Assembly: GCA_014378465.1 (NCBI GenBank)
Contig: JACMNQ010000057.1
Coordinates: 134,103-198,102, forward strand
Source of the DNA: Oligoflexia bacterium
GTDB lineage: Bacteria > Bdellovibrionota > UBA1018
Length of the DNA: 64,000 bases
Direction of reading: 5' to 3'
In this document: positions 8,592 through 59,391 of the stretch, in pieces
How positions within the stretch are numbered: the first letter of the stretch is position 1
How the letters are laid out: each line of letters opens with the position of its first letter
The notes under the pieces: generated by a model
Seen by the model: the letters and a program-made list of their open reading frames with translations, nothing else
Databases searched by the model: none
What the model was told of the DNA's origin: nothing
Program-made: the position numbers and the translations under genes

Positions 8592-10040
8592 ATGACGTCA
8601 GCCATGAATCCCGTTTTCGTCCAGAACGCCCTCAAGACTGTCCTCGTGGCTCAGACGGCAGGTGCGACTCATCGCACCACAGAAACCCTTCCCTACTCAT
8701 CAATTACAACGGATTCGAGAAAAATCCAAAAGTGTTGTCTGTTCGTTGCCATTGCGGGCGATAAATTCGACGGGCATGATTTCATCGGCGCAGCCGTCGC
8801 CGGGGGTGCAAGCGCGGTGATCTGTCGCGAGGACTTTGCAGTACCCGCCGGAGCGCCGGAAACTGTCCAGTTTTTCAGGGTCGCGGACACGGTCGAAGCC
8901 TACCGTACCCTGGCAGGTGCGTGGAGACGGGAATTCACGATCCCCGTGATTCTGGTCGCCGGCAGTGTCGGCAAGACCACCACCAAGGAACTCCTCTCGG
9001 CCCTGCTGAAGGGAAAATTCACCGAAGTCCTCAAAACGGCAGGCTCCCAGAATGGCTACGTCGGGATCCCGATGACTCTGCTTGAACTCAGGCCCCATCA
9101 TCAGGTGGCCGTGATCGAAGTCGGGATTGACGAAATCGGAGCGATGGTTCAGCACACGAAACTCGTACAGGCCGATCATTCGATCCTCACGGCAATCGGT
9201 CCGGAGCATCTTGAAAAATTGATTGATGTTCCAACCGTGGCACGTGAAGAATCGTTGGCTCTCACCGAAGTTTCAGAACGCGGCGGCGCCGTCGTGCTGC
9301 GTCTGGATGATGAATGGATCGCCCCGCTTGCGACAAAGCTGAAGACACCGAAAAAGTCCGGCTTCACACTCTCCAGTTCCGGACTTTCTCAGGCCAACGC
9401 ACAGACGCTGGTCGGAGAACTCACCCACTCCGCCTCGCAGATGAAATTTTCGGGAATGGGCCTCGAGCCCGCTGAAATTGAACTGCCTCTGCTCGGAGTT
9501 CACAATGCCGTGAATCTTCTCGGCGCGATCGCGATGGCCCGTGCCGTTGGACTCACTCGCCAGGAAATTCTCGACGGTCTGAAGACATTCAAGGGGACCG
9601 ATGGGCGGTCTGAACTCAAGAAGCTCAAGCAGGGCAACCCCGTCGTCTGCGATTACTACAATGCGAATCCGACTTCGGTCGAAGCAGGCCTGGAACTTCT
9701 CACCCAGGTCGCGGGGCCGAAGACGCGGTGGGCCTGCCTCGGTGACATGCTGGAACTCGGCCCGAACGAAGAGACCTTTCACCGGGATCTCTCGAAAAAA
9801 ATCCGAAAGCTCAAGATCGAGAACGTGCTCCTCTACGGGCCCCGCATGAAATGGCTGCTCTCTGAGCTGCAAAATCAGGGATTTTCAGGCTATTTGAGTC
9901 ACTTTTCGACTCACCAGGAACTGGCTCAGAGCCTGTCGTCCCAGATCACGCCTCAAGATGCGATTCTGATCAAGGGCTCACGCGGAATGAAAATGGAAGA
10001 AGTCTGGAAGGCGCTTCAACTGTCGCCTCCCGCTTCGTGA
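8592..10040 (+). CDS. murF: UDP-N-acetylmuramoyl-tripeptide--D-alanyl-D-alanine ligase
   Basis: Mur ligase P-loop VAGSVGKTTTKELL and a C-terminal GDMLELGPNEETFH motif. Start moved to the ATG at 8592 because the longer ORF would overlap the purK 5' end. Confidence 0.8.
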   Translation: MTSAMNPVFVQNALKTVLVAQTAGATHRTTETLPYSSITTDSRKIQKCCLFVAIAGDKFDGHDFIGAAVAGGASAVICREDFAVPAGAPETVQFFRVADTVEAYRTLAGAWRREFTIPVILVAGSVGKTTTKELLSALLKGKFTEVLKTAGSQNGYVGIPMTLLELRPHHQVAVIEVGIDEIGAMVQHTKLVQADHSILTAIGPEHLEKLIDVPTVAREESLALTEVSERGGAVVLRLDDEWIAPLATKLKTPKKSGFTLSSSGLSQANAQTLVGELTHSASQMKFSGMGLEPAEIELPLLGVHNAVNLLGAIAMARAVGLTRQEILDGLKTFKGTDGRSELKKLKQGNPVVCDYYNANPTSVEAGLELLTQVAGPKTRWACLGDMLELGPNEETFHRDLSKKIRKLKIENVLLYGPRMKWLLSELQNQGFSGYLSHFSTHQELAQSLSSQITPQDAILIKGSRGMKMEEVWKALQLSPPAS

Positions 10041-10047
10041 GGCCTTC

Positions 10048-11169
10048 ATGAAAGCTGAGATTCTCGGTACGACTTCGAAAGCAATTGCAAAAGCCGCTGC
10101 ACTTCTCCAGGCTGGCGAAGTCGTGGGGATGCCGACCGAAACCGTGTATGGACTTGCGGGCTGCGCTTTCAATTCGTCCGCTCTCGCAAAGATCTTTGAA
10201 ACCAAGGAACGTCCCACTTTCGATCCGTTGATCTGTCATGTGGATGCGAGCGTTCAAAACCTCGCGGATCTCGAAGCCATCGGTCTTGTGAACCCGGCCG
10301 CACTCTCCCGAGTTGCACAAGCCCGAGTTGAATCGTTGATGTACCGATTCTGGCCTGGCCCTCTCACTCTGGTACTGCCACGACATGCTCGAGTGCCGGA
10401 TCTCGTCACCGGAGGACTGGACACGGTCGGAGTTCGCATGCCTCGGCATTCAGCCGCGCAAGCGCTCATCGCTGCGGCCGGATTTCCGCTCGCAGCGCCG
10501 AGTGCCAATCGCTTCGGGCGAATCAGTCCGACGACCGCGCAAGCGGTCTTTTCAGAACTCGGAGACCGGATCCCGATGATTCTGGATGGGGGTGCCTGTG
10601 AAGTAGGACTCGAATCCACCGTACTTCTGGTGAATGCGGAAGGTGAGCTCACTCTCCTGCGCCCAGGCGGAATCTCGGAAACCCAGATCGAAGAAGTCGC
10701 TCATGCTTCCGTCATACGCGCGACCTCCCCCGACGCAGCCTTGAAGAAATCGGCCGAGCTTGCTCCCGGAATGCTCGACAGCCACTACGCTCCTTCAAAA
10801 AAACTGTATCAACTTGAAGCTTCGGTCAGTGAATTGAACAAGCTTGAAGTTGTCGGTTTGGAAACCGCTGCACTCCCTGAATCGCTCGGCCTCCTGATGC
10901 TCTCTGGAAGCGCATTCGAAGGAACTTCGAAATTTGAAGCCCTGACTGGTCGGAAAGTGATTGCTTTCACACTCAGCGAATCCGGCAACTGGTCTGAAGC
11001 TGCCCAGAACCTGTTTTCCACTTTACGCCGACTCGATGAATCGCCCGCCCTGGTTCTCTTCTGCGAACCGTGCCTGGAGACAACCGGGATCGGCCATGCG
11101 ATCGCCGACCGACTGAAACGTGCTAGCCACGGCAGCAAGCAGGTCGCTGAAGTCGCTCACAACAGGTGA
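10048..11169 (+). CDS. tsaC: L-threonylcarbamoyladenylate synthase (Sua5/TsaC, YrdC domain plus Sua5 C-terminal domain)
   Basis: YrdC motifs (TETVYGLAG, RPTFDPLICHV) and a long C-terminal domain. Confidence 0.85.
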   Translation: MKAEILGTTSKAIAKAAALLQAGEVVGMPTETVYGLAGCAFNSSALAKIFETKERPTFDPLICHVDASVQNLADLEAIGLVNPAALSRVAQARVESLMYRFWPGPLTLVLPRHARVPDLVTGGLDTVGVRMPRHSAAQALIAAAGFPLAAPSANRFGRISPTTAQAVFSELGDRIPMILDGGACEVGLESTVLLVNAEGELTLLRPGGISETQIEEVAHASVIRATSPDAALKKSAELAPGMLDSHYAPSKKLYQLEASVSELNKLEVVGLETAALPESLGLLMLSGSAFEGTSKFEALTGRKVIAFTLSESGNWSEAAQNLFSTLRRLDESPALVLFCEPCLETTGIGHAIADRLKRASHGSKQVAEVAHNR

Positions 11170-11635
11170 TGGCTCTCGACTGGGCAATGACCTCCTCTTG
11201 AAAGGCTTTGTCGGGTTTCTTCCGACAAACGCCTCCGTCGCCAATACTCATTTTGTTCGATTTTCAGCCGATTCATGCCGCTCCAGGCGTACTTTGAGAT
11301 TCGACTGCCGGTTCGGGAATGGATGAAACACGGCTCTGCTCTGCTCAATTGAGTTTTGAGCACTCGTTCTCATTCCTCTCGAGATCGTGCTTGAGGCAGA
11401 CGAAGTCCCCTTTCCAGATCACTGAGGTGAGAACGCTGAATGCCGACAAGTTTGGCCAATTGAATTTGGGTCATTCTCAGTTCCAGTCGCTTCGAATTTC
11501 ATACCCTGATGCGCCGGTCGACGTACTCACGGGTCGAATTTGAGTGACCGGAACGCCCCTTCTGATCATGCGACCATTCCAAATCCAGCCGTCACGACGG
11601 TTTTCAGCTTTCATGATCCCATGCTGAACCCAAGA

Positions 11636-32343: not shown

Positions 32344-32742
32344 TTAAGCGGATAAAGAGGAATCTGAATGAGAGGGCGCAGCGGGGACATTGACTCGCTG
32401 CTCACTTGGCTTGCTCGCTCGCGATTCAACTCTACTTTCAACTTCTCCTTCGACAGGTGCTTCAACTTTCCTGTGATGAATTACAATCCCCAGACCGACC
32501 AGGCTACTGATCAGGAGGAGCACGTTCGTGACGAGAAATACGTAATTGTGAAGCATGCCGCTGTAAATGATGAAGCCTGCGTTCGCGAGGATCTCGCCGA
32601 TGTAAAGCCACTTCGATACCCCACGACTTGTCTTTTCAGACCACTGCTTGTAAATCTGCTTGCCGATCGTCAGCAACAAGATGAACGAGCTCGCCCAGCC
32701 AATGATTTCCTGCATCTTAGCGCCGGAAATTGCAATCGTCAT
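32344..32742 (-). CDS. Small membrane protein, hypothetical
   Basis: Three predicted TM helices with an acidic/Ser-rich tail. Confidence 0.4.
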   Translation of the reverse strand: MTIAISGAKMQEIIGWASSFILLLTIGKQIYKQWSEKTSRGVSKWLYIGEILANAGFIIYSGMLHNYVFLVTNVLLLISSLVGLGIVIHHRKVEAPVEGEVESRVESRASKPSEQRVNVPAAPSHSDSSLSA

Positions 32743-32764
32743 ACCGAATCAGGATGGGAAGGGA

Positions 32765-33988
32765 TCAATGCAGAGGAGAAGGTTCGGCGGGGACCGCCCA
32801 TTCAGGCGGGGTCATGACCAGCTTGAGGTAGGAACGCTGGTTTCCAGGCAAATGCGGGGAATAAGTGGGGGTGCCCATTCCCAGAAATTCCGGCCAGATC
32901 GGAAATGGATCAGAAAGCTGTGACCAATCACACTTCATTTCGGCGTCGGTCAACAGGCAGGAGTCCAACTGGGAAATCCAGGCGGCCGCATCGATCAAAT
33001 CACCCACGAAGGCGATTTCGGTATAGCGTTCAGCCATTGGATCAGCAGGCTGATCCATGAGGTACCGCTCAGACCAGAAACCTTCAGGCGTGAAGTGAAG
33101 AGTTGAAGGTCCAACCTGACTCAAGTTAATTGCGACTTCTCTTCTTGAAGCCAGCCATACCTGCCCGTAGCTTCTCAGGATGTGATCCGGCCAGGCCTCA
33201 ATCAGGGAGGCGAGACGCTCGGGATGAAAAGGGCGATAGCGTTTGTAAACCAGGGAAGAAACGGGTTCTTCCGGCACTGTTCCGTCGCACCGAAGAACCG
33301 CCTGCTTCCAAGCAGCTCCTTCCAAGGTATACTGCTCATCATAAAGTCCTGTTTTCAAAACTTCTGAGCTGGCGAAGTCAAAATCCTGAGTGCACAGAAA
33401 CTTGGCCCTCGGCTGCAGTGTCTGAAGAATCGTCTCGATTTCATCCAGGCGATTTCCGCCTGATCGGCGACCGAACCGCTTGTAGCCTGAATTGAGAATG
33501 ATCACGTCGCAAAGCTCGACTTGTTCAACCATCAGCTCGACTGCGTCCAAACCATCCATTTTCTGGGGTTCGCGAACATAGTCTTCCCAAAACCGATGTG
33601 CGCCGACGACGCAGACCAGAGTGTCCAACTCGATTTTGCCTACCAAACCCGGCTCATCTTCTTCGAGGAGCGAAAAAGTATCGACGATCACCTGAGGATC
33701 GCAGTCCTCTGCGGCTTCGATGATCAGACAATCAATGGGATGGGTGTGAATGTACGATTTGATGGCGAGAAGAAGGTCTTGGCGGGTGCCACATTGCGTG
33801 CACCCACCTTCTTCACTTGTGAGCTTTGGATCGTCCAGAACTCCGACGCGAAGCTCTGGAGAAGTCGAGACGAGGGAGCGAATCAGCTCAGACTTGCCGA
33901 CGTTGGCAAGTCCCATGACTACGGTCACCGGAATCGGATGAGTTCCCTCAATCCGCTCAGGTCGCCGAAATGGGATAATCTGAGCCAC
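32765..33988 (-). CDS. COG0523-family GTPase (CobW/ZigA-like putative metallochaperone)
   Basis: P-loop GLANVGKSEL, a Cys-containing metal motif CTQCG, and a C-terminal CobW_C-like region. Starts 13 nt after the rpsN stop. Confidence 0.65.
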   Translation of the reverse strand: MAQIIPFRRPERIEGTHPIPVTVVMGLANVGKSELIRSLVSTSPELRVGVLDDPKLTSEEGGCTQCGTRQDLLLAIKSYIHTHPIDCLIIEAAEDCDPQVIVDTFSLLEEDEPGLVGKIELDTLVCVVGAHRFWEDYVREPQKMDGLDAVELMVEQVELCDVIILNSGYKRFGRRSGGNRLDEIETILQTLQPRAKFLCTQDFDFASSEVLKTGLYDEQYTLEGAAWKQAVLRCDGTVPEEPVSSLVYKRYRPFHPERLASLIEAWPDHILRSYGQVWLASRREVAINLSQVGPSTLHFTPEGFWSERYLMDQPADPMAERYTEIAFVGDLIDAAAWISQLDSCLLTDAEMKCDWSQLSDPFPIWPEFLGMGTPTYSPHLPGNQRSYLKLVMTPPEWAVPAEPSPLH

Positions 33989-34000
33989 TCAAACTCCAGC

Positions 34001-34306
34001 TTACCAGCTGGACTTGGTCACACCAGGAATCTGTCCAGTGTTTGCAAGTTCACGGAATTTGATTCGGCAAACATTGAACTTACGCAAGAAACCGCGAGGG
34101 CGTCCGGTGAGTTCACAACGATTGCGAACACGGATTTCCAGAGAGGACTTCGGCAAAGAGCCGAGCTTCTTGCGGGCAGCAACACGCTCATCTTCAGTCA
34201 ACTTCATGTTCTTCGACTTGGCGCGGAGCTCAATGCGGAGGCCCTTGTGAAGCTCAACCATTTTCTTACGCTTATTGTTCGTTTCTACTTTGCCTTTTTT
34301 TGCCAT
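34001..34306 (-). CDS. rpsN: Ribosomal protein S14 (long, 101-aa type without CxxC pairs)
   Basis: [18 protein letters not shown]...[41 protein letters not shown]. Confidence 0.9.
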
Positions 34307-34320
34307 GAACTTTCCTTCTC

Positions 34321-34563
34321 TTACTTCCTGTAACGGCGATTGAACTTTTCGATGCGGCCAGCGGTATCCATGATACGCTCTTGTCCCGTGAAAAATGGGT
34401 GAGAAGCTGAAGAAATTTCCACCTTGATCAGTGGATACTCTTTGCCATCTTCCCATTTAATGGTGTCTTTCGCGCCTTGGCAGGAACGAGTCAAAAATTT
34501 AAAATCAGATGAGAGGTCTTGGAAAACGACTTCTCTGTACTCAGGATGAATTCCCTGTTTCAT
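34321..34563 (-). CDS. rpmE: Ribosomal protein L31, type B (zinc-independent, YkgM-like)
   Basis: [14 protein letters not shown]...[11 protein letters not shown]. Only one Cys and no CxxC pairs. Confidence 0.9.
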
Positions 34564-34579
34564 AGATACTCCAGTTAAT

Positions 34580-34864
34580 TTAGGCTTTGCGAGCCCGAAT
34601 GAGTGAACATTTTATTGAAGCCAAACGCTCAGAGAGGTTTTCGGCTTTGGCATGCATGATCGCGTTTGAGATGCCGCCTTGCTTGTCAATCGTGCGGATT
34701 GCGCGAGTCGAGAGCTTGAGGCTCACAACCTGGCCGAGCTCAGGAATGGTAAACTTCTTATTTTTGACATTCGGCAACCAGCGGGTGCGGGTTTTAGTGT
34801 TCGAGTGACTGACCAGATTTCCAGTCACAGGGCGCAGGCCGGTTAATTCACAAACTCTCGACAT
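34580..34864 (-). CDS. rpmB: Ribosomal protein L28 (Cys-poor form) with a C-terminal extension
   Basis: [33 protein letters not shown] matches the L28 N-terminus. Two Cys, no CxxC pairs. Confidence 0.85.
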
Positions 34865-34895
34865 GAGATCTCCTTAAACTTGAACGTAAACTTTG

Positions 34896-35228
34896 TTAAG
34901 CCAGTACCTGGCCGCTAGATTTCGCGAGGCGAACGAACTTGCCATTCACTTCTTTTTTACCAATGCGGGTCGGCTTGCCATTCTTCGGGTCAACCAACAT
35001 TACATTGGAGTAATGAATCGGAAGGGTCTTCTGGATCGTTCCGCCCTGTGGACTCTGCTGACTTGGCTTGGTGTGACGAGTGACGAGGTTGACACCTTCG
35101 ACCATCACACGGTCATCTTTGGCAACAATTTCAATAATTTTGCCCTGTTTGCCTTTGTCTTTACCAGCAATCACGGTGACCAGGTCACCCTTTTTCAGCT
35201 TAAATTTTTTCTTTTCTACTGCAGCCAT
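34896..35228 (-). CDS. rplX: Ribosomal protein L24 (KOW domain), likely a paralogous copy
   Basis: [31 protein letters not shown]...VEGVNLV..H.KP is the KOW/L24 signature. ATG start chosen; the track ORF begins at an upstream TTG. Confidence 0.8.
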
Positions 35229-35345
35229 AATCCTAAAGCTCCTTGTCAAACCCGCGCCGTCTCACATCACACCGCTGATGCAGGGGTGAATTTTCTCAGT
35301 CATAAAGCTATTTTGAATCAGTTTCCAGAGTCTTCTGCTCGAAAT

Positions 35346-35412
35346 GCGTCAAAAAAAGCGATTCATCAGCTTTTTTTGGCAAAAAAAGCGACTTTTCTGA
35401 TTGATGAGCGGT
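35346..35412 (-). promoter_or_regulatory. Leader element of the rplX-rpmB-rpmE-rpsN operon: 9-3-9 AT-rich palindrome overlapping a second 9-9-9 inverted repeat
   Basis: Minus-strand sequence GCTTTTTTT-GCC-AAAAAAAGC-TGATGAATC-GCTTTTTTT. The middle arm can pair with either flanking arm. A direct repeat CAAAAAAAGCGA occurs twice. Confidence 0.4.
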
Positions 35413-35650
35413 ATCCATACCTCAAAATTAAAAAAACTCACTCTTAAATTTTAAGATGTGCTGCGTTATTTTTGAATCATTTCGGGTGACTCAGGCTGCT
35501 GCGGCGAGCTCTCACTGCACGAAGGCGACCCGAACCCTCATTTTCAACGCCTCCCCGACTCCAGTCGACCTGGCCGCGCACCCTTTAAATGGAAGAGGGG
35601 GCGCTGCTCACCGAAGCGCGCCCCCTCCCCCCCCCTCTATTGATTCCGAG

Positions 35651-36199
35651 CTAAACCGATTTGCGCCTTTTGTGGCCCGAATGGGGATTCTGAGCCACTC
35701 CTGGCTGCGCAATAGGGTACTTAAGCTTCGAAAGCAGTTCATCTCGATGGATCTGCATCCAGGTTCCCAGATCTGCAAAGAAGTCTTCTCTGGCCCGAGC
35801 CAGGAGTGCGATTTCAGCCTGCTCCTCTCGCAGATGAAGTTCAAAGTTCTGGATCATCCCATCGAAAATCCGGTTGAACTCCGGGTCTTCCTGATTGATT
35901 TTTTTCAGCTCTGGAATTCGCTTCATGCCTTCATTCATGGACTTCAGACTTTCAAAAGCAACTTTCCTTCCGAAATACTTCTCGAGCAGAGGGTAGAGCA
36001 CTGAATCTTCTATCGCAGCATGAATTTCCAGTTGCATGAAAATTTCATTCACCATGGCCCGTTTCAACTCCGGGGCACGCAGATCCACGGTTTCAAATAG
36101 GCGAAAAAACTGCGTGATTCGTCTTCGGTTCCGATCGAGAAAATCACCCGCGCTGATTTTTTGGTGAGCCATTTCCGCAGAATTTCCAGACTGATTCAT
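35651..36199 (-). CDS. Hemerythrin-like (HHE cation-binding) domain protein
   Basis: His/Glu spacing typical of hemerythrin-like helices (H..E...H, EE..LYP). Confidence 0.65.
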   Translation of the reverse strand: MNQSGNSAEMAHQKISAGDFLDRNRRRITQFFRLFETVDLRAPELKRAMVNEIFMQLEIHAAIEDSVLYPLLEKYFGRKVAFESLKSMNEGMKRIPELKKINQEDPEFNRIFDGMIQNFELHLREEQAEIALLARAREDFFADLGTWMQIHRDELLSKLKYPIAQPGVAQNPHSGHKRRKSV

Positions 36200-36405
36200 T
36201 GATGATCTCCCTCAAGTTGGAATCGCGGACACTGAAAGTTTTTTTTTAATGAGTGAAGACGCAAGAGGTCCGCCAGCCGATCTCCCTCCGAGCGGTGCGT
36301 TGAGTCGGGCTGGTATCCCAGTTGCATCACTCGCAGCTCAACAGCTGTTCGAATCCATTCGAGTGGCCCGCTTCAATATCAACTCGCTCACCAAGGAGAT
36401 CTCAC

Positions 36406-36615
36406 ATGATCAGACTCACATTGTTTGCAGTCGCCGGTTTTTTTGCCTGGAGAAACCGTTTCGAAATTCAGCGTTTCCTCGGCTCTTACGGCATCAAGAC
36501 TCCACTTCTGGACAGCACCCTTTCTGACACCGTACGTTCCGGTGCAGCAAAGATCACGGGCTCCGTTGAACACGAAGCGCGCAAAATGGATAACGAAAGC
36601 CGCCGCGCGATCTGA
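36406..36615 (+). CDS. Small membrane-anchored protein, hypothetical
   Basis: AAGGAG lies 6 nt upstream of the ATG. N-terminal TM helix MIRLTLFAVAGFFAW. Confidence 0.4.
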   Translation: MIRLTLFAVAGFFAWRNRFEIQRFLGSYGIKTPLLDSTLSDTVRSGAAKITGSVEHEARKMDNESRRAI

Positions 36616-36655
36616 TCGTGGGCCCATTCGTTCTCAGGCTCTCGTCATGAAAGTT

Positions 36656-36694
36656 TGAAAAAAAAGGCAGCTTCCTCATGAAGCTGCCTTTTTT
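36656..36694. terminator. Bidirectional rho-independent terminator
   Basis: AAAAAAAA-GGCAGCTTC-CTCAT-GAAGCTGCC-TTTTTT between convergent genes. Confidence 0.75.
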
Positions 36695-36720
36695 CGACCA
36701 AACGAGTTCAGAAAGCGGCC

Positions 36721-37122
36721 TCAGCCGGTCCCTGAAGCGGCCAGCTTGCCGCGGAGACAGTTGAAATTCTGATCGTCCATGCCCTGCACCTGTTTCAATT
36801 CGTCCACCGACTTGAAACCATTGTGATCCCTGCGGTAGTTGACGATGTCCCTGGAGAGATCGGGTGAAAGCCCGAGCGCCTGAAAGCGCTTTTCTTCCAT
36901 TCGTTTCAGGTCCCCCTTGATTTCCACGGTTCTGACCGTGGGAACCTCACTCTTTTCCGTGATGACCACCTGCCTTTGAGTCTGGATATCCACGTTTCCT
37001 TCACTGGACTGCACCTGACCCAGCGGCGATTGCGGCGCCGCGGAAGCGGGTTGATCCGGTTTCACTTCTCTGCCTCCACAAGCACTGAGGGCAAGGCAGA
37101 GCAGAGTCGCGGACAGGCTCAT
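36721..37122 (-). CDS. ComEA-like helix-hairpin-helix lipoprotein
   Basis: Lipobox LSAC. The C-terminal HhH motif GLSPDLSRDIVNYRRDHNGFKSVDELKQVQGM is typical of ComEA. Confidence 0.6.
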   Translation of the reverse strand: MSLSATLLCLALSACGGREVKPDQPASAAPQSPLGQVQSSEGNVDIQTQRQVVITEKSEVPTVRTVEIKGDLKRMEEKRFQALGLSPDLSRDIVNYRRDHNGFKSVDELKQVQGMDDQNFNCLRGKLAASGTG

Positions 37123-37136
37123 TGCAAAGTCGGCAG

Positions 37137-37598
37137 TCAGGCTGCGGCCAGATTTTCGCTTCGCGCCGCTTCGAGCTCCACTCCGACCTGTTCCAGCTCT
37201 TCCGCGTCCAGAAGCTCTCGGACTTTTGGGAAAAGCTCGTCCTCTTCCTCTTCGACATGGTGCTGGACGAGCTCCATGAGCTCGTCCAGCTTGTCTTCAA
37301 CCTGTTCGGCGTATTGCTCCTGGTCACTCACCACGAAGAGAACGGTCTGAATTTCATTGAGAAGATCCCGCACTTCCTGGTGATCATCGTAGCTTCCTTC
37401 AATGAGTTCACTCAACTCATCTCGATGGGCGAAGAGCGGGTAGAACGCGGCTTCCTCGATGTTCGAGTGAACTTCGAGTTCCTGCCGGATCAAGGCGAAG
37501 ATCCGTCGCTTTTCGGCGAAGTGATCAGCATTCTGAATCTGTTCGAACAGACTTCGCACCTTCTGATGATCTGCTTCCAAGAGTTCCGTGGCGTCCAT
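37137..37598 (-). CDS. Hemerythrin-like domain protein (second copy)
   Basis: ADHQKVRSLF, H..EE...YP and HH.EEE motifs. Confidence 0.65.
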   Translation of the reverse strand: MDATELLEADHQKVRSLFEQIQNADHFAEKRRIFALIRQELEVHSNIEEAAFYPLFAHRDELSELIEGSYDDHQEVRDLLNEIQTVLFVVSDQEQYAEQVEDKLDELMELVQHHVEEEEDELFPKVRELLDAEELEQVGVELEAARSENLAAA

Positions 37599-52295: not shown

Positions 52296-55200
52296 TTGGG
52301 CTATTCGCTGATTCGGAGTTTTTCTCATATGAAGTCGATTTTTCTCCATGGCACTGCAAACGGCTCACACTCCCAAGGTTCCCACGGCTACCGGCCTGAT
52401 CTCGGCTATATCGGCAAGAAGCGAGTCAGCACGAGCAATTACCTCTTCAGCATCACTCGCCACGAATACCGAAGTCACATCCACGCCAAGGATCTCCTGA
52501 GCTCCTTCATGAAACGCTCTCCTGAAGAGCATTACATGACCAGCCAGCTCCTCACCGGCTTCGTCAAGAAGCGCGGTCTCACCTTCAGCAAGAAAACAAA
52601 GAATGGCTACCGGATCTTCACGGTCCCGGTGAGCAACACGATCGTGCCTCTGGCAAAATCCACTTTTGATACGCTCGAAAGGAATGCTCAGTCTCTGGTG
52701 CTGGCCCTGCGCTGGGTCCTTCAGAGCATCTATGGAGCGGAGAAGATCGAAGATTCCGACTTCGTCCAGTCTCTCCCCGAGTCCGTGCAGGCTCTTTTCC
52801 TGCACGCCATCCGGACCTCCCCCCAGTATTTTTCACAACTCCATCATCCGGTGATGAAGGACTACCCCTTCTTCGAAGTCGTGGGTCTCGACCTGGTTCT
52901 CGTCGGCGAATACCTGTCCCAGAACGATGCACTGTTCAAAGCCACCCCGATTCACGAACTGCCTTTCAAACTCCTTGAACTCAATGCGGGTTCGCCGTCT
53001 GGGGCTTCCAACAACATGAATGTGCTGGAAGGCCTCATGACTGTGGATCCCACGATGAAGAATCTTCAGGAACGCGTGATGCCCAACGATCACTTCAAGG
53101 TTCTTCGGGAGACTTTTGATTCCATTGGCAGGGAGTGGACTGGACGACAGGACGGCATCTCCATCATTCTGCCTCCTGGCGGAGGAAACGGTGCAGCTCC
53201 AGAGATTCATCAGCTTGCGGCTTACAGCGGCATGTCCTACGTGGATCCCTCGCAACTCTACACTGCCCGTGACGGAATGCTGCGCCTGCGAACTCTGACC
53301 GGCAATGATCCCTGCGTGACCTCGATCTATTCCCGCATCAATGCGGATGCGGCCCTCTACGATCCGGAACGCGATCTCTTCATGCGCGATGCCGACAGCG
53401 GTGAAAAACTCTACCAGGAAGATTACCTGCTTCGCGACAAGGACGGCAAATGTCCTCAGGTTCTGGATCAGAACGGACAGCCCCTGCCGCTTGACTCAGT
53501 CTACGCCATCCCGAAAGCCATTGACCTGATCCACTCAAAGAAAATCTATCTCGGCGGCCTCAATCGAGTTCTTGACAACAAGCTCATCCTGTCGACGCTC
53601 ACGCACTACGCTCCCCGGTTCTACCGCCTGCGCCTGGCGATGATGGGACTCAATTCAGACAGCTTCAATCTTGTGCCACCGGAGACTCTCGCGCCCGAGC
53701 GCGCCTCGGTTGAAATCATCAAGAAGAACCCAGACGACTGGGTCGTCAAGGCCCCGAATCTTTCGGGAGGCAACGGCGTTCACATCCTGCTGACACTGCC
53801 CGAGTCACGCAAGAAGAAGATCATCCAGGAAATCGAAGCGCGTCCGTGCGACTACGCCTATCAGAGGCTCGTCAAGATCGCGCGTATCCCGGTGGCCGTG
53901 AAGGAAAAGGGCCGCGTCCGCTTCGCCAATCTTGCGGCGGATCTGCGCATGTGGGCATTCTTCGGCGCAGGCCCGAGCTTCCCGAAACCGAAACTCACGC
54001 ACAATGGACTGGTCCGGTTCGCACCCTGCGAAAAAGGTCCTCTCAGCAGCATCGTGAATACTTCAAAAGGGGGCGGTTACGCTCCCCTGCTGATCATTGA
54101 TGACGTCGGGAGCCCTGACGCCTGTTCCATTCAGGACCTGGCAAGCAAGCCTCAGACCGCCTCAAGTCCCGTGCCCGCTTTTGCCGGCGCGCAGATCGTC
54201 CAGATCGCTCGCATCGTCAAAAAGCTCGTCCAGGATCTCGACATGCCTGAGTTCACGGCATACGCGGCCCGAGAGCTCGTGCTCAGTCTCAACGCTCAGT
54301 GCGCGGAAGTGCTGTCCTTCCTCAGCCCTCGCAATATCGAACCGGTTTCCGAAATGGCCACGACACTTGAAAAGAAGATCAGTCGTGCTCATATGGCGGT
54401 TGCCTTCAGGAAGCACAAGCTGGCGCAGCTGAGACTTCTGGAAACACTCACTGAAATTGAAGCTGAACTCAGCTCAAGAAAAGCGGTCGGCTTCTTTGAT
54501 CAGATCGCGCGCCTTCACTGCCTGGGCGATGAGTACGTACTGCATCCAAAGGCGGGAGCGCTTGCCCGTGAGGATCTCGCACAGATCTCGCTGCTTCAGC
54601 AGGCGATTCTCACAGACCGCACTTTGAACCGAAACGGCGATTCAAAATCGAAACTCATGGCTCGCGCCCTTCGTCTCCTCAAGGAATTGGCCCGCGCTCA
54701 CGTCAGCTCGAAACCCCTCTCGACCAAGGCTCGTCGCGATCTCAAGATCCAGCTGGAACGCTTCTCATCGATGGCCAGAGCGGCCATGATCGGAAATGGA
54801 GAAGTCGAATTGCCCACCCTCTTCACGGAGATCAACCTGCACCGAAAGCCTCTGGCTTCGGACGTGAGCTCGGACTACAGCCCACTCTTCCCAGAAGATC
54901 AGTCCCACAAGGAAGCCTGCGTCGCGACCCTCTGGGAAATCGAAAACGGTCGAAGCCTCATGGATTCCGAATTCATTTACGGTGAACTTCAGACCGCTAG
55001 ACAAGCCTGGATGAAAGTGCGCGCGGAACTGAACCTCAGCAAATCGGCAGCACTCAGAAAAATCCAGCTTGAAAAGAGGAGACTGGAGCATTTTGAGAAT
55101 TTCCCGGTCCTTAAATCCTACCAGGCTCTGATTGACAAGCGTGAAGCCGCCACCGCGGAAGACATGATCTCGCTCCTTCCGGTGCTGCCTTACGCCCGTT

Positions 55201-56081
55201 ACAACATCCAGCAGTACCTGGCGCAGAAGAAACTGAGCATGAGTGAGCTCTTCACGACCGAACTCACTCACGAGCGCGTCGCCTTCATGAGCGCTCAGCA
55301 GCTCCGGACTTCCGGACTCAACGGCGCCCATGCGGGAGAGTGTTTAGCCAGGAAACGTGAAAGCCACGGACTTTTCTCTGAAAGTGAAATGCTCGTCTGG
55401 CTCTCGTCCGAGGCTTCACCTCTGGTCCAGGCCTACACGCTCGGCCATGAGTTGATTCATTTTCATCAGATTCAGAGTCTGATGAAGCGCGAAAGGAAAT
55501 CCATCGCGGATGGACACCTCGCTTTCGCCAACTTCCTGAATTTTTACGGCAGTCACCTGGGAACTTCCGTGAGTCCGGTCGAAAAGTTCAGCGCCAACAC
55601 GACTGAACATCGTACGGTTTTTTACGGGCTGGCTGACATCGCGGGTCTGAAACGCTTCGCAATCGTCAAGAAGCTCCTGAACAGCTACAAAGAAGGCGAA
55701 ATCAGCTTCGTTCGCACCATGCGTGCGCACGGGAGCCTTTTCGGGATGGTCCTGCCCTCCGCTTCCGCGACTCAGGTCAAGGCCGTGAGAGAAATCATTC
55801 CCTGCCTGGAGAACGCGAAGAACATCCGCTTCGCCAAGGACCTGGGACTTCGGATTGAAATCGACGAAATCCGCTCCGCGCTGCCCGCTGCGAACGCAGC
55901 ACAGCTGAAGCGTTACCGGGCCATCATCGAATCCGGCCTTCATGCTCCTGCAGCGACTCCAGAAGTGCTGCAGATCATCGGAAACCACCAGCTCTATGGT
56001 GTGAGTGCGAGCCTTGAAATTCCACAAAACCACTATCCGATCTATCTGGGCGACAGCTACAACAGTGCGCAACAACAATGA
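52296..56081 (+). CDS. Giant (1261-aa) multidomain protein: predicted circularly permuted ATP-grasp amidoligase N-terminal half, long helical region, C-terminal HExxH motif
   Basis: ELNAGSP (E-x-N metal motif, normally C-terminal in ATP-grasp enzymes) at about aa 225. It precedes IYSRINADAALYDPE and DDWVVKAPNLSGGNGVHILL (Lys strand plus Gly loop, about aa 480), which implies circular permutation. GHELIHFHQ lies at about aa 1020. TTG start in the track; the first ATG is at 52329. Confidence 0.5.
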   Translation: MGYSLIRSFSHMKSIFLHGTANGSHSQGSHGYRPDLGYIGKKRVSTSNYLFSITRHEYRSHIHAKDLLSSFMKRSPEEHYMTSQLLTGFVKKRGLTFSKKTKNGYRIFTVPVSNTIVPLAKSTFDTLERNAQSLVLALRWVLQSIYGAEKIEDSDFVQSLPESVQALFLHAIRTSPQYFSQLHHPVMKDYPFFEVVGLDLVLVGEYLSQNDALFKATPIHELPFKLLELNAGSPSGASNNMNVLEGLMTVDPTMKNLQERVMPNDHFKVLRETFDSIGREWTGRQDGISIILPPGGGNGAAPEIHQLAAYSGMSYVDPSQLYTARDGMLRLRTLTGNDPCVTSIYSRINADAALYDPERDLFMRDADSGEKLYQEDYLLRDKDGKCPQVLDQNGQPLPLDSVYAIPKAIDLIHSKKIYLGGLNRVLDNKLILSTLTHYAPRFYRLRLAMMGLNSDSFNLVPPETLAPERASVEIIKKNPDDWVVKAPNLSGGNGVHILLTLPESRKKKIIQEIEARPCDYAYQRLVKIARIPVAVKEKGRVRFANLAADLRMWAFFGAGPSFPKPKLTHNGLVRFAPCEKGPLSSIVNTSKGGGYAPLLIIDDVGSPDACSIQDLASKPQTASSPVPAFAGAQIVQIARIVKKLVQDLDMPEFTAYAARELVLSLNAQCAEVLSFLSPRNIEPVSEMATTLEKKISRAHMAVAFRKHKLAQLRLLETLTEIEAELSSRKAVGFFDQIARLHCLGDEYVLHPKAGALAREDLAQISLLQQAILTDRTLNRNGDSKSKLMARALRLLKELARAHVSSKPLSTKARRDLKIQLERFSSMARAAMIGNGEVELPTLFTEINLHRKPLASDVSSDYSPLFPEDQSHKEACVATLWEIENGRSLMDSEFIYGELQTARQAWMKVRAELNLSKSAALRKIQLEKRRLEHFENFPVLKSYQALIDKREAATAEDMISLLPVLPYARYNIQQYLAQKKLSMSELFTTELTHERVAFMSAQQLRTSGLNGAHAGECLARKRESHGLFSESEMLVWLSSEASPLVQAYTLGHELIHFHQIQSLMKRERKSIADGHLAFANFLNFYGSHLGTSVSPVEKFSANTTEHRTVFYGLADIAGLKRFAIVKKLLNSYKEGEISFVRTMRAHGSLFGMVLPSASATQVKAVREIIPCLENAKNIRFAKDLGLRIEIDEIRSALPAANAAQLKRYRAIIESGLHAPAATPEVLQIIGNHQLYGVSASLEIPQNHYPIYLGDSYNSAQQQ

Positions 56082-58456
56082 GTTCACCGTGGAAAGGAGA
56101 AGCCGTGTCTAAAAACGAAATGAATCAGATCGGTTCCGCACACGATGAGGTCCTCAAAACCGCTGTCAGTTCAGGCGCGACTTCAGTCCGGTGGGCCGGA
56201 CTGAGAACAGAGCTCGGCACTGGACCTTTGGAAAAGTCTTCTGGGGAAGTTCTCACTCACCACGAAGACAGTCTCGCGGGTATTTCCAGAAAATGGCGTG
56301 ACGCTCTGTTTTCGCCTCCTGTGGATCTGAAAACCGATCTTGAAAAAATTCTGTTCCTGACCACGGAAGCGGACACGACGATTGAATATCGAAGTGAGGC
56401 TCTCAGCGGCTATAACCTGAAAGCGCACTCGGGTGATGAGCTCACCGATGCCGCTCAGATTCGCTTCACTCCGCTCTTCAACGGTGGATTTCTCATTCAG
56501 AAGTCATTTCAGCTCGCGCAGCCGTCCTTCATGATCTTCGAACATTACGATTTCAGCGGGGCCTATCAGGGTCGCATACAGGCGCCGCCGCCCACTCCGC
56601 TCTATGTGCCGCTGACGGAGATGGAACCCGCCTGCCCGATCGCTTCGCACCTCTACAACACGCTGGCGTTCGAATATGAGCAGGCCGAAACCGGCACCGC
56701 GAACTCCAGGAGAATTCTCGGTGTCGAGACGCTGTTGCGGACACTTGCAACACTTCCGGCCCTGCCGTTTTCCTTCCGTCGCGGATTTCGCGATCTGGCG
56801 CTTGTACAGCTGCAGAAAAAGCTCCTTCAGAACGAGCTCGATCCCGCCCTGACTTTTCAGGAGAAGGAAGTGGTCAGGCTCAAGATCAAATCGGACCGCG
56901 CTCTGATCCTCAAGACCAAGGCGCGCATTCATCGACAGTCCGCGCTGAAGTTGAAATCGGCACTTTTCGTGATGGATCTTTCCACAAGGTTTCAGGGAAT
57001 TTTCGGACGCCCCCAGGAAAAAGTTCGCGGCGGTCTCTACAAGTACACGATCGGTGCCTTTCTCTGGTTCTTCGGGGTCGTCAAGGGCAACATCGGTTAC
57101 TCGATCGCTCTGGCGATCTACGGTCCGTTCACTTTCTATTTCATCACCCAGCCGATGAATCCCTACGCAATGTGGGCAGTCGGCAAGGTTCGCCAGGGTT
57201 ACATCAACACGATCAATGATGTGAAAACCCTTCAGGACAGCTCATCTCGGGTACTTCAGCACGTGACCGGCCTGGGTGCTTCCGGGGGCACGGCTGCGGC
57301 ACTCCTTCCTGAGCCGCTTCACACTCAGAACGCGGATCCTGCCCATTCGTCCGTGGCTCCGAGCCCCGTCCAGAACGCGACGCCTGCGCTGCCTCTGGTC
57401 ACCCTCAACCGATACTCGAGCTTCAAGCCTCGCTTCGAAAATCTGCTTCTGGCGACTGACGTGCCTGATGTGGACAAACAGAAGTGGCCAGACCGCATGA
57501 GCAACTTCAAAGCGATGCAGATCGCTTACGAAGAGAACATGCAGTTCTCGACTCGCATGGGTCGACTTGAGCAGATGGAAACGCAGCTCAACTTTCCTCT
57601 GATCGCGGAGTCCTCCTTCAGGCAGATGGAACGGTATCAAGACCTCCTGATGAAGATGCGCTCCAAGCTGGCTCGTCACCCCCAGGCGGCCGAACTGAAG
57701 ACTTACTTTGACCGCGAAGAACAGCGCACTCGGCAGTTCAAGCTTTATGTCTGGGACAAACTGATCCGGTACATGCTGGACCATCCCTATGTCGTCATGA
57801 ACGAAGGCAAGGACCAGAACTACGTCGACTACTATGTCGGACGCTCCTTCATCTTTCTCGAAGAAGTGACTGCAAGTCTGACGAAGGAATACCAGGGCCT
57901 CAGAAAACCGAAAGGCTATGCCGCTGTCGAAAAACTGGCTGGCACCTACAGGGACAGGCACGTGGATGCACCCAGCATCGAAGAACGCCTGGCCAAGAAC
58001 TCGCTCCTTGCCACTCAGAAGGATTTTTACGGATCCAATGAACTCCGCTCTTACCTGAAACGACAGTGGGAGCTTCTGTTTCTGTCTCAGAACCGCGCTC
58101 AGGAAGCCTCCAATTTCGGTCTGCAAACCTATACCTGGTCGGTACGAAATGCGATCTGGGCACTGGATGCTCTCCATTCTTCAAAAATTCACGAACTGCG
58201 CATGATCGGCGATGCCGTTGATCAGCATCAGAAGCTCGATGCTGCGATCAACGAAGAGAAGAAAAACGTGGAAAGCCTCTACGAGTCCCTCTTTCACATC
58301 ATGTCTCTCGAATATGTCAGCATCCGTCAGGAGTTGTCGGAACGCCTGGATGATGACATCGAATTCATCCAGAGGCAGACCGTGATTGAGAGCCTGAAAC
58401 AGAGTTTCACTGAACGCACGCAGTTCCTCAAGAGTCTTGCAAAGGGGACTTCTTGA
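56078..58456 (+). CDS. Large (792-aa) hypothetical protein with a central transmembrane hairpin; translationally coupled to the upstream gene
   Basis: 4-nt overlap with the upstream stop. Central hydrophobic segment YKYTIGAFLWFFGVVKGNIGYSIALAIYGPFTFYFI. Otherwise helical, no known motif. Confidence 0.55.
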   Translation: MSSPWKGEAVSKNEMNQIGSAHDEVLKTAVSSGATSVRWAGLRTELGTGPLEKSSGEVLTHHEDSLAGISRKWRDALFSPPVDLKTDLEKILFLTTEADTTIEYRSEALSGYNLKAHSGDELTDAAQIRFTPLFNGGFLIQKSFQLAQPSFMIFEHYDFSGAYQGRIQAPPPTPLYVPLTEMEPACPIASHLYNTLAFEYEQAETGTANSRRILGVETLLRTLATLPALPFSFRRGFRDLALVQLQKKLLQNELDPALTFQEKEVVRLKIKSDRALILKTKARIHRQSALKLKSALFVMDLSTRFQGIFGRPQEKVRGGLYKYTIGAFLWFFGVVKGNIGYSIALAIYGPFTFYFITQPMNPYAMWAVGKVRQGYINTINDVKTLQDSSSRVLQHVTGLGASGGTAAALLPEPLHTQNADPAHSSVAPSPVQNATPALPLVTLNRYSSFKPRFENLLLATDVPDVDKQKWPDRMSNFKAMQIAYEENMQFSTRMGRLEQMETQLNFPLIAESSFRQMERYQDLLMKMRSKLARHPQAAELKTYFDREEQRTRQFKLYVWDKLIRYMLDHPYVVMNEGKDQNYVDYYVGRSFIFLEEVTASLTKEYQGLRKPKGYAAVEKLAGTYRDRHVDAPSIEERLAKNSLLATQKDFYGSNELRSYLKRQWELLFLSQNRAQEASNFGLQTYTWSVRNAIWALDALHSSKIHELRMIGDAVDQHQKLDAAINEEKKNVESLYESLFHIMSLEYVSIRQELSERLDDDIEFIQRQTVIESLKQSFTERTQFLKSLAKGTS

Positions 58457-59391
58457 AAGCCCGAACTTCTCTTGCATTCTGCTCACTGACTCTCGCCGGC
58501 CTCGCAGCCGGAGCACTGCCGGCGACCCCCGCTCATGCGCAGTCCCAGCCAACTTCTGGTGTCCAACCCGCCGCCAACGCCGAGTCACAGGCTCATGCGT
58601 CTGGCTGGAGCGATTTCGGAAAAAAGCTTCAGCTCAAGTACTACACGGAATTTGACGGGCCCACACTGGACTATTCGAGCTCCAAACAGAGCTTCAATGT
58701 TCTGTCCGACTACCGGACTCCGGTGAATCTTTACCAGAGCCTGGAACTGAGTTACCTGATCACTCCCGATCTGAAATTCGGCGCCCAGCAGGGTTTCTTT
58801 CAGAACATGGCCCGAGAAGTGAAAACGAGTTATGGCTGGAATCACTCGACCAACCTCGTGACTTTCAATCCTCAGATTTTTCTCGTGCAGTACAATCTGA
58901 TCGACACACGGATCGTCAATCTGCAGCAGTCCACGACCATCGATGTCCCTCTCACGGAAAATGCGCGCATGACGCACTTTCACACCGCAATTCGCTCGAC
59001 CCAGGCCTGGCGTGTGGGCGCACTCAAGACCACCCGCTGGAATGTCGGAATCGACACGGACATGATCGAACGCTTTTACGCCAATACCATGGGTTGGAAC
59101 ACCTTCTACTTCTCGACGGGCCACCACGTTTCGTATCAGTTCAATCGGCATCTGCAGCTGGAGACCTGGAGCATTTTCGACATCGGCCACAAAGGCGGGC
59201 AGAAGAATCCGTCCGGTCAGGACCGAAAATGGTGGGAAATGAACGACGGCTTCGTGGACTTCATGAGAATTTCACTCAATTACAGCCCGTTCATCAATTC
59301 CTGGCAGATCACGCCATTCGTGCAGTCTCCGATCTACCACCGAAGCATCGACCGCATGATCGGCGGTTTTGAGATGACCGTCTGGATGTGA
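58453..59391 (+). CDS. Secreted protein, possibly outer-membrane beta-barrel; third gene of the operon
   Basis: 4-nt overlap with the upstream gene. Sec signal peptide (cleavage near AHA-QS). Alternating aromatic/hydrophilic beta-strand-like pattern, Asn/Tyr/Trp-rich. Confidence 0.5.
   Translation: MKARTSLAFCSLTLAGLAAGALPATPAHAQSQPTSGVQPAANAESQAHASGWSDFGKKLQLKYYTEFDGPTLDYSSSKQSFNVLSDYRTPVNLYQSLELSYLITPDLKFGAQQGFFQNMAREVKTSYGWNHSTNLVTFNPQIFLVQYNLIDTRIVNLQQSTTIDVPLTENARMTHFHTAIRSTQAWRVGALKTTRWNVGIDTDMIERFYANTMGWNTFYFSTGHHVSYQFNRHLQLETWSIFDIGHKGGQKNPSGQDRKWWEMNDGFVDFMRISLNYSPFINSWQITPFVQSPIYHRSIDRMIGGFEMTVWM

Follow-up and report, generated by a model that had tools for sequence, protein, structure and literature searches.

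A probable zinc-sparing ribosomal protein operon that includes L24 in a Bdellovibrionota lineage

Five genes on the minus strand of a 64,000-nucleotide stretch of DNA from an uncultured Oligoflexia bacterium related to Bdellovibrio (contig JACMNQ010000057.1 of assembly GCA_014378465.1; we refer to the whole stretch as the window) encode ribosomal proteins L24 and L28, a type-B L31, a long cysteine-poor S14, and a COG0523-like protein (positions 32765-35228). We propose that these genes probably form a zinc-sparing alternative ribosomal protein operon, in which a paralogue of uL24 comes first and, in the window's lineage, a degenerate COG0523 protein comes last. The known zinc-sparing set of ribosomal proteins would then probably have a member, L24, that has not been described. 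(Six families of ribosomal proteins have both zinc-ribbon forms, or C+ forms, and cysteine-poor forms, or C- forms: L28, L31, L32, L33, S14, and S18.)

The operon and its relatives

The five genes, in the order of transcription, are:

34896-35228, minus strand: uL24 gene, the first gene of the operon; 110 amino acids; TIGR01079 at 116.4 bits (cut-off 53.7), with domains PF00467 (KOW) and PF17136 (ribosomal_L24)
34580-34864, minus strand: bL28 gene, C- form; 94 amino acids; TIGR00009 at 77.7 bits (cut-off 48.3); contains CELTG and has no CxxC pair
34321-34563, minus strand: bL31 gene, type B; 80 amino acids; NF002462 at 137.8 bits (cut-off 86)
34001-34306, minus strand: uS14 gene, long C- form; 101 amino acids; NF006477 at 123 bits (cut-off 77)
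32765-33988, minus strand: gene for a degenerate COG0523-like protein, the last of the operon; 407 amino acids, GTG start; domains PF02492 (cobW) and PF07683 (CobW_C)

A preliminary description of this DNA had placed rplX, rpmB, rpmE, rpsN, and a COG0523 gene on the minus strand, and the Pfam and NCBIfam models identify all five genes at those places. It had given spacers of 13 to 31 nt, which holds to within one base. The ribosomal genes are separated by 31 nt (L24 and L28), 16 nt (L28 and L31), and 14 nt (L31 and S14); the spacer between S14 and the COG0523-like gene, given as 13 nt, is actually 12 nt. The same description had read L31 as type B with a single cysteine, and L28 and S14 as lacking paired CxxC motifs. 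Indeed, L31 matches the type-B model and has one cysteine and no CxxC pair, the only cysteines in L28 are Cys5 and Cys86, and S14 has two isolated cysteines, with C..TG and C..KF at the sites where the zinc-binding form has CxxC. The window's L24 has no cysteines.

In an independent assembly (a 28-kb Logan contig from SRR9661224), the public gene call yields the identical five genes. Because of this, and because the order L24-L28-...-S14 recurs in other lineages, the arrangement is not due to chance. The window's L24 is identical to NCBI protein MBC7692585.1. In NCBI, the window's proteins, MBC7692585.1 among them, lie on a contig of 285,539 bp. Their metagenome-assembled genome is labelled Methylotenera sp. 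in GenBank, they are listed in nr under Oligoflexia bacterium, and all of the close relatives are Bdellovibrionota-like; the contig was probably mis-binned, or the metagenome-assembled genome mislabelled, in GenBank.

Homologues of L24 were taken from scans of genome contigs and of metagenomes, and our counts are among the matches listed. The L24s nearest to the window's among these matches come from clusters of a similar make-up. In at least 10 further Bdellovibrionota-like loci from metagenomes, L24 adjoins cysteine-poor L28, S18, L31, S14, L32, or L33. The loci that we refer to below are:

L002/L003 (GCA_002291495.1): divergent L33, then L24-L28-L31-S14; upstream is a hemerythrin/HHH_3/hemerythrin block, as in the window
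L004/L005 (Logan, 116-kb contig): L24-L28-S18-L31-S14-L32
L170 (GCA_027485695.1): divergent L33, then L24-L28-S18-L31-S14-L32
L176 (JGI, 844-kb contig): divergent L33, then L24-L28-S18-L31-S14-L32
L007 (collection scan): L24-L28, where the end of the contig is reached
L087 and L089 (collection scan): L24-L28-S18-L31(-S14)
L015 (marine Oligoflexia metagenome-assembled genome): L31B-L33-L24-L28-S18
L129 (collection scan): S18-L33-L24
L009 (collection scan; groundwater metagenome-assembled genome): L24-S18
L178: L24-L28-S18, then a COG0523-like gene

Across these loci, the partners of L24 (L28, L31, L32, L33, S14, and S18) have 0-2 cysteines each and no CxxC pair anywhere. Not every member of the operon comes from a zinc-site family: uL24 is cysteine-free and has no known zinc form, and the canonical L24s of Bdellovibrionota are likewise cysteine-free.

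In a distance tree, the cluster L24s also fall into groups of their own: a main clade of about 40 clusters (at 90% identity), a smaller clade of the L129 type, and the L015 type apart from both. The canonical L24s of Bacteriovoracaceae and of Bdellovibrionales-like genomes lie outside all of these groups. The window's L24 lies within a clade whose L24s all sit in C- clusters. Furthermore, across five clusters the pairwise identity of L24 (56-77%) parallels that of L28 (58-83%), L31 (66-84%), and S14 (56-82%), so L24 has been inherited together with its neighbours. Its ratio of nonsynonymous to synonymous substitution (dN/dS) is 0.06-0.08, equal to that of the neighbours, with dS saturated. Thus, L24 is under purifying selection, and it is a stable, co-evolving member of the cluster across the clade.

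It is very improbable that the first gene serves as something other than a ribosomal protein gene, either by encoding a KOW-domain regulator that acts on the operon or as a translational-coupling "starter" reading frame left over from a duplicated piece of the spc operon. KOW domains do occur in regulators of the NusG/Spt5 type, to which there are weak matches here, and the gene lies at or near the 5' end of the operon throughout the main clade. However, it has an internal position in L015 and L129, the L24 equivalog model covers the whole protein with a score of twice the cut-off, and all of the conserved motifs and positions of L24 are kept in the cluster L24s. Also, the dN/dS of about 0.07 applies to the whole length of the gene.

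The cysteine-free S18 paralogues in these clusters (L004 6673-7053, L009 6354-6704, L178 474-794, and those in L170 and L176) have N-terminal extensions of 30-60 residues in which Arg, Gly, Asp, and Glu are abundant; GGDRGGDRGGRGGDR is one example. No such extension is present in the S18 of L015.

Second copy or relocated gene

The preliminary description had left two options: either the zinc-sparing set has expanded in a way not yet described, or L24 and S14 were relocated away from the spc operon. Expansion is favoured because the partners of L24 are all C- forms, because a COG0523-family gene lies in the same operon, because L24 is a stable member of the cluster, and because we found no earlier account of such an L24 in the searchable literature. 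We consider it very likely that the cluster L24 is a paralogue and not a relocated sole copy.

If the genes had instead been relocated and consolidated, then the zinc-ribbon forms would have been lost and the cluster would be a constitutive primary operon with the only copies of L24, L28, L31, and S14. This seems improbable to us, although it would fit the outcome of the searches for second copies. Within the scans made, a second L24, S14, L28, or L31 was not found in any carrier genome, and a profile search with the canonical L24s of Bdellovibrionota gave no match from the carrier assemblies or contigs. (Context look-ups of three canonical L24s, P0121, P0232, and P0145, and accession look-ups led to other assemblies, and the window's own genome is not among the matches listed in the L24 scans.) In addition, strong purifying selection acts on the cluster L24, which looks fully functional. 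Finally, some Bdellovibrionota, namely the Bacteriovoracaceae, rely on a C- S14 alone. But in those lineages the C- S14 is the primary copy and the gene has stayed within the spc operon (L066 and L080). Random relocation would not bring together exactly the families with C+ and C- forms (L28, L31, L32, L33, S14, and S18) along with L24. The order L14-L24-L5 is unbroken in the other L24 loci (160 of 160 among the matches listed), and neither L14 nor L5 adjoins the cluster L24 in the window or in any locus of the alternative type.

Canonical L14-L24-L5 operons are present in Bdellovibrionota (L066, L067, L074, L080, L167, L171, and L172). In the Bdellovibrionales-like lineage, the spc operon carries a type-Z S14 (CPLCG...CRLCF), and this is where one would expect a C- S14 as a spare. 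As compared to the canonical rplX of the spc operon (rplN-rplX-rplE-rpsN...), the window's L24 belongs to the same family (TIGR01079) and has the same domains; it differs in having no L14 or L5 neighbour, in its C- partners, and in its separate clade in the distance tree.

That L24 is not among the described members of such clusters, as the preliminary description had stated, agrees with our reading of the searchable literature, in which we came across neither a zinc-linked L24 paralogue nor an L24 in a zinc-sparing cluster. A review of Zur regulons does not include L24 among their ribosomal proteins (PMC6103462). In a census of 995 genomes by Yutin and colleagues (2012), the strongly diverged ribosomal paralogues were all zinc-motif proteins, and Bdellovibrio bacteriovorus HD100 had an extra S4 only (PMC3353972). 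The bS21 paralogues of Francisella are also paralogues of a ribosomal protein without a zinc site, and they also point to ribosome heterogeneity (PMC13374519). They differ from the case described here in that bS21 is another protein and has no link to a zinc-type cluster; the window's L24 is known from genes alone.

The COG0523-like protein

The preliminary description had called the last protein of the operon a CobW/ZigA-like GTPase. Although it is a co-operonic member of the COG0523 family, it is not ZigA-like: it scores 163 bits on the ZigA equivalog model (cut-off 600), most of its G-motifs are lost, and it has CxxC as its metal motif. Judging from these sequence features, it is a member of a small degenerate subfamily. 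In a search of 1.84 billion representatives, the nearest relatives share 34-38% identity with it. In a profile search, nine clusters score more than 400 bits, and the best match after them has 291 bits. On the ZigA model, the relatives within the subfamily score 76-172 bits.

An alignment of the motifs with those of ordinary COG0523 proteins illustrates the degeneration. About 27 residues of switch I are deleted in the subfamily. The metal motif GCxCC is replaced by CxxC throughout (CTQC in the window's protein versus CICC), and these two cysteines, C63xxC66 in the window's protein, are invariant in the alignment. The ESxGxxEP motif of switch II has lost its glycine (EAAED versus ESTGISEP), and NKxD is lost (LNSG versus LNKxD). 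Walker A is retained in the window's protein (GLANVGKS) and is absent from 3 of the 9 members (P0256, P0401, and P0402). The CobW_C domain is intact in the window's protein and is well conserved across the subfamily.

A search by sequence with phmmer found no solved structure. The AlphaFold 2 model (predicted local distance difference test score, or pLDDT, of 82) has E. coli YjiA as its best match in the PDB (1nij and 4ixm, E = 1e-13), which implies that the COG0523 fold is retained. In other words, the two-domain architecture of G3E plus CobW_C is present, by both Pfam and the fold match, and the intact G-motifs and GCxCC are not.

In 3 of the 4 contexts that could be read, the subfamily lies beside C- ribosomal genes. 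These are the window, L178 (whose protein is 27-31% identical to the window's), and L180-L183, where the COG0523-like gene is divergent from a gene for a cysteine-free L32. (In L180, at 9618-11380, and also in L181-L183, which represent another lineage with contigs of up to 457 kb, the intergenic region between these two genes is 173 nt.) The exception is L179, where the gene is alone.

In mycobacteria, the c- operon under Zur control includes the gene for Mrf, a protein that binds zinc via C64xxC67, attaches to the 30S subunit, and brings in the hibernation factor Mpy (PMC7431043). The window's operon resembles that operon (of the type rpmB2-rpmG2-rpsN2-rpsR2-mrf-rpmE2) in combining cysteine-poor paralogues of zinc-ribbon proteins with a co-operonic COG0523-family protein, and in both proteins there is a CxxC at about residue 64. 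The operons differ in phylum and in uL24, which is absent from the c- operons described so far. Furthermore, the window's protein falls under the cut-off of the Mrf model (68 versus 375 bits), and its switch-I segment is deleted. The closest analogue of the window's protein would thus appear to be Mrf, by context and motif and not by membership under the curated model.

The Zur regulons that include alternative L31, L36, S14, or L33 together with a COG0523 GTPase (Bacillus subtilis ZagA/YciC, Acinetobacter baumannii ZigA, and E. coli ykgMO; PMC6103462) share with the window a C- L31B, S14, and L28 beside a COG0523-family gene. Proteins of the ZigA/ZagA type, however, keep GCxCC and all of the G-motifs; the window's protein lacks those motifs and has 163 bits versus the 600 of the ZigA cut-off. 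More broadly, the window's operon is like the C- operons of mycobacteria, Streptomyces, and Bacillus in most respects, and differs from them in its conserved uL24, in its degenerate Mrf-like offshoot of COG0523, and in phylum (PMC6103462, PMC7431043).

Two side observations concern the surroundings of these genes. In L009 (3567-6704), the L24-S18 pair lies beside clpP and clpX, in divergent orientation. The stability of mycobacterial Mrf is under the control of Clp, which degrades the zinc-bound protein, and the link between this and the gene neighbourhood in L009 may be a coincidence. In the window, there is a possible sixth gene in the operon:

32344-32742, minus strand: small membrane protein of 132 amino acids, from the list of open reading frames (ORFs); it starts 22 nt past the stop codon of the COG0523-like gene

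For this ORF, Pfam gives only a sub-threshold match to MtN3/PQ-loop. In its place, the public gene call has an overlapping ORF of 149 amino acids on the plus strand (32368-32817), which looks non-coding. Elsewhere in the window (52296-59391, plus strand), three large ORFs follow one another: the first encodes 1261 amino acids with circularly permuted ATP-grasp domains, and the next two, of 792 and 312 amino acids, gave no match in Pfam.

The leader, the signal and the proposed role

The region upstream of L24 contains the following features:

35229-35590, minus strand: leader and promoter region of the operon, with a sigma-70-like site, a palindrome, a conserved element, and an upstream ORF (uORF)
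35448-35476, minus strand: sigma-70-like site, the only such site upstream of L24
35442-35456, minus strand: perfect AT-rich 7-1-7 palindrome TCTTAAAATTTAAGA, which overlaps the -10-like hexamer; candidate operator
35410-35421, minus strand: conserved element GGTATGGATACC, which occurs once in the window
35308-35418, minus strand: uORF of 36 codons, which begins at the ATG of the conserved element
35591-35645, minus strand: G-rich tract and GC-rich hairpin, a likely terminator of the upstream hemerythrin gene, as read from the sequence (the terminator scan did not report it)
35651-36199, minus strand: proximal hemerythrin (Pfam)
36721-37122, minus strand: HHH_3 (ComEA-like) protein (Pfam)
37137-37598, minus strand: second hemerythrin (Pfam)

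Given the GC-rich hairpin after the hemerythrin gene, transcription of the L24 operon probably starts from a promoter of its own. The leader element, GTATG(A/G)ATACC, which in most cases continues with (T/C)(T/C)TGTGT, also occurs upstream of L24 in L004 (at about 5884), L007 (about 5648), L087 (about 2752), and L089 (about 49), and there are diverged versions upstream of L24 in L170 (about 5877) and L176 (about 7831). By a hand estimate, the chance expectation for this 11-mer in a leader of 420 nt is about 2e-4. Between lineages, the leaders that carry this element are otherwise unalignable. In most of the loci, the element includes the ATG of a short uORF whose product starts with M-(D/N)-T; in L176, the ATG is absent.

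Inside the uORF of the window (35351-35389, minus strand) there are three A7/T7 segments, GCTTTTTTT / AAAAAAAGC / GCTTTTTTT, and TCGCTTTTTTTG occurs twice. From their sequence, these three segments could form two mutually exclusive A-U hairpins, as in an attenuator. We considered a structured RNA leader and rejected it: RNAalifold gave -4.7 kcal/mol for five leaders with almost no covariation, and the fold of the window's leader had z = 0.26 relative to shuffled sequences. Rfam, searched in E-value mode for six loci, gave no leader family (only tRNAs and noise).

Several observations weigh against a zinc-sparing operon with a second L24. First, the preliminary description had envisaged a Zur- or Fur-type box in the leader, and none could be defined: in a survey of palindromes and of shared 12-mers, the 10 upstream regions had no Fur/Zur-like operator in common beyond what was found in shuffled sequences, and the palindrome TCTTAAAATTTAAGA is not conserved at the other loci. 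Second, the zur gene that it also considered does not occur in the 64-kb window by our Pfam survey, and neither does znuABC or any other zinc gene; among 40 further ORFs of the window, Pfam found no member of the Fur family, no ZnuABC, no ZIP transporter, and no TonB receptor. Third, in the scans of genome contigs and metagenomes, no carrier genome among the matches listed was seen to have both an alternative-type and an spc-type L24. Fourth, only three N-terminal positions (KLKKGDLV) distinguish the cluster L24 from the canonical one, and the sequence gives no clue as to why a second L24 would be needed. Finally, the COG0523-like protein is far under the cut-offs of the equivalog models for both ZigA (163 versus 600 bits) and Mrf (NF047431; 67.8 versus 375 bits), and its gene is absent from most of the related clusters. 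Of the expectations in the preliminary description, the expansion of the zinc-sparing set is the one that our data favour (the partners are C- forms and L24 is conserved), and zinc regulation is the one for which no box was found. Because there is no shared operator and no zur or znu gene in the window, what points to zinc control is the composition of the operon and the analogy to known systems.

Alternatively, the operon might encode parts of an alternative ribosome that responds to another signal, such as stationary phase, oxygen, or iron or redox state via the hemerythrins, or it might be autoregulated through the leader element and its uORF. In favour of this, no Zur box was found in the upstream regions, and several lineages have GTATG(A/G)ATACC and short uORFs ahead of L24. 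The window's operon is directly preceded by the two hemerythrin genes, and the hemerythrin/HHH_3/hemerythrin block is syntenic in L002 (GCA_002291495.1, 3493-5294). There is also a precedent in PA2171, a ribosome-binding, hemerythrin-like repressor of translation (PMC13041383). On the other hand, the synteny with the hemerythrins is absent from L004, L170, and L176, the match of the proximal hemerythrin to the PA2171 family is far under the cut-off, and C- composition together with a COG0523-family protein with an Mrf-like CxxC is the hallmark of a zinc regulon (PMC6103462, PMC7431043). We therefore consider a signal other than zinc to be unlikely, although less so than relocation.

The proximal hemerythrin itself was considered as a ribosome binder of the PA2171 family and rejected: its match to NF053874 is full-length and weak (29.9 bits versus a cut-off of 190), so that it is only a lead. 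The upstream block (35651-37598) also includes a small ORF.

If the operon is zinc-sparing, as we propose, it might work as follows. A metal-responsive repressor would keep the operon off, and low zinc would turn it on. The cysteine-poor bL28, bL31B, and uS14 could then replace the zinc-ribbon forms when zinc is scarce, and these C- proteins would be made together with a uL24 of their own. uL24 is an early assembly protein of the 50S subunit. Because it acts early, having its own uL24 could allow the cell to start new zinc-free large subunits while the main ribosomal operons shut down. By analogy to Mrf, the COG0523-like protein may be a zinc-sensing, ribosome-associated factor and not a GTP-driven chaperone, because most of the GTPase motifs have been lost and a CxxC is kept where Mrf has its zinc site.

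A bolder version, which we put forward as a speculation that may well prove wrong, is that a clade of Bdellovibrionota keeps a conditional second uL24 within a complete zinc-free kit (L24, L28, L31, L32, L33, S14, and S18), as a separate assembly line, and that a COG0523 pseudo-GTPase with an Mrf-like CxxC couples zinc status to these ribosomes outside of the Actinobacteria.

If the proposal is correct, then a conserved uL24 paralogue in C- operons would be the first universal ribosomal protein in the set that is not a zinc protein, and this would raise the question of whether a spare ribosome needs its own assembly initiator. There would also be a practical consequence. TIGR01079 is among the single-copy markers used for genome-quality scores and for the bac120 tree of GTDB. 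If a second L24 exists in these lineages, then their contamination estimates would be inflated or the wrong orthologue would be picked. Finally, the degenerate COG0523 subfamily would extend the idea behind Mrf, that of a zinc-sensing, ribosome-associated factor that is encoded with C- ribosomal proteins, beyond the mycobacteria.

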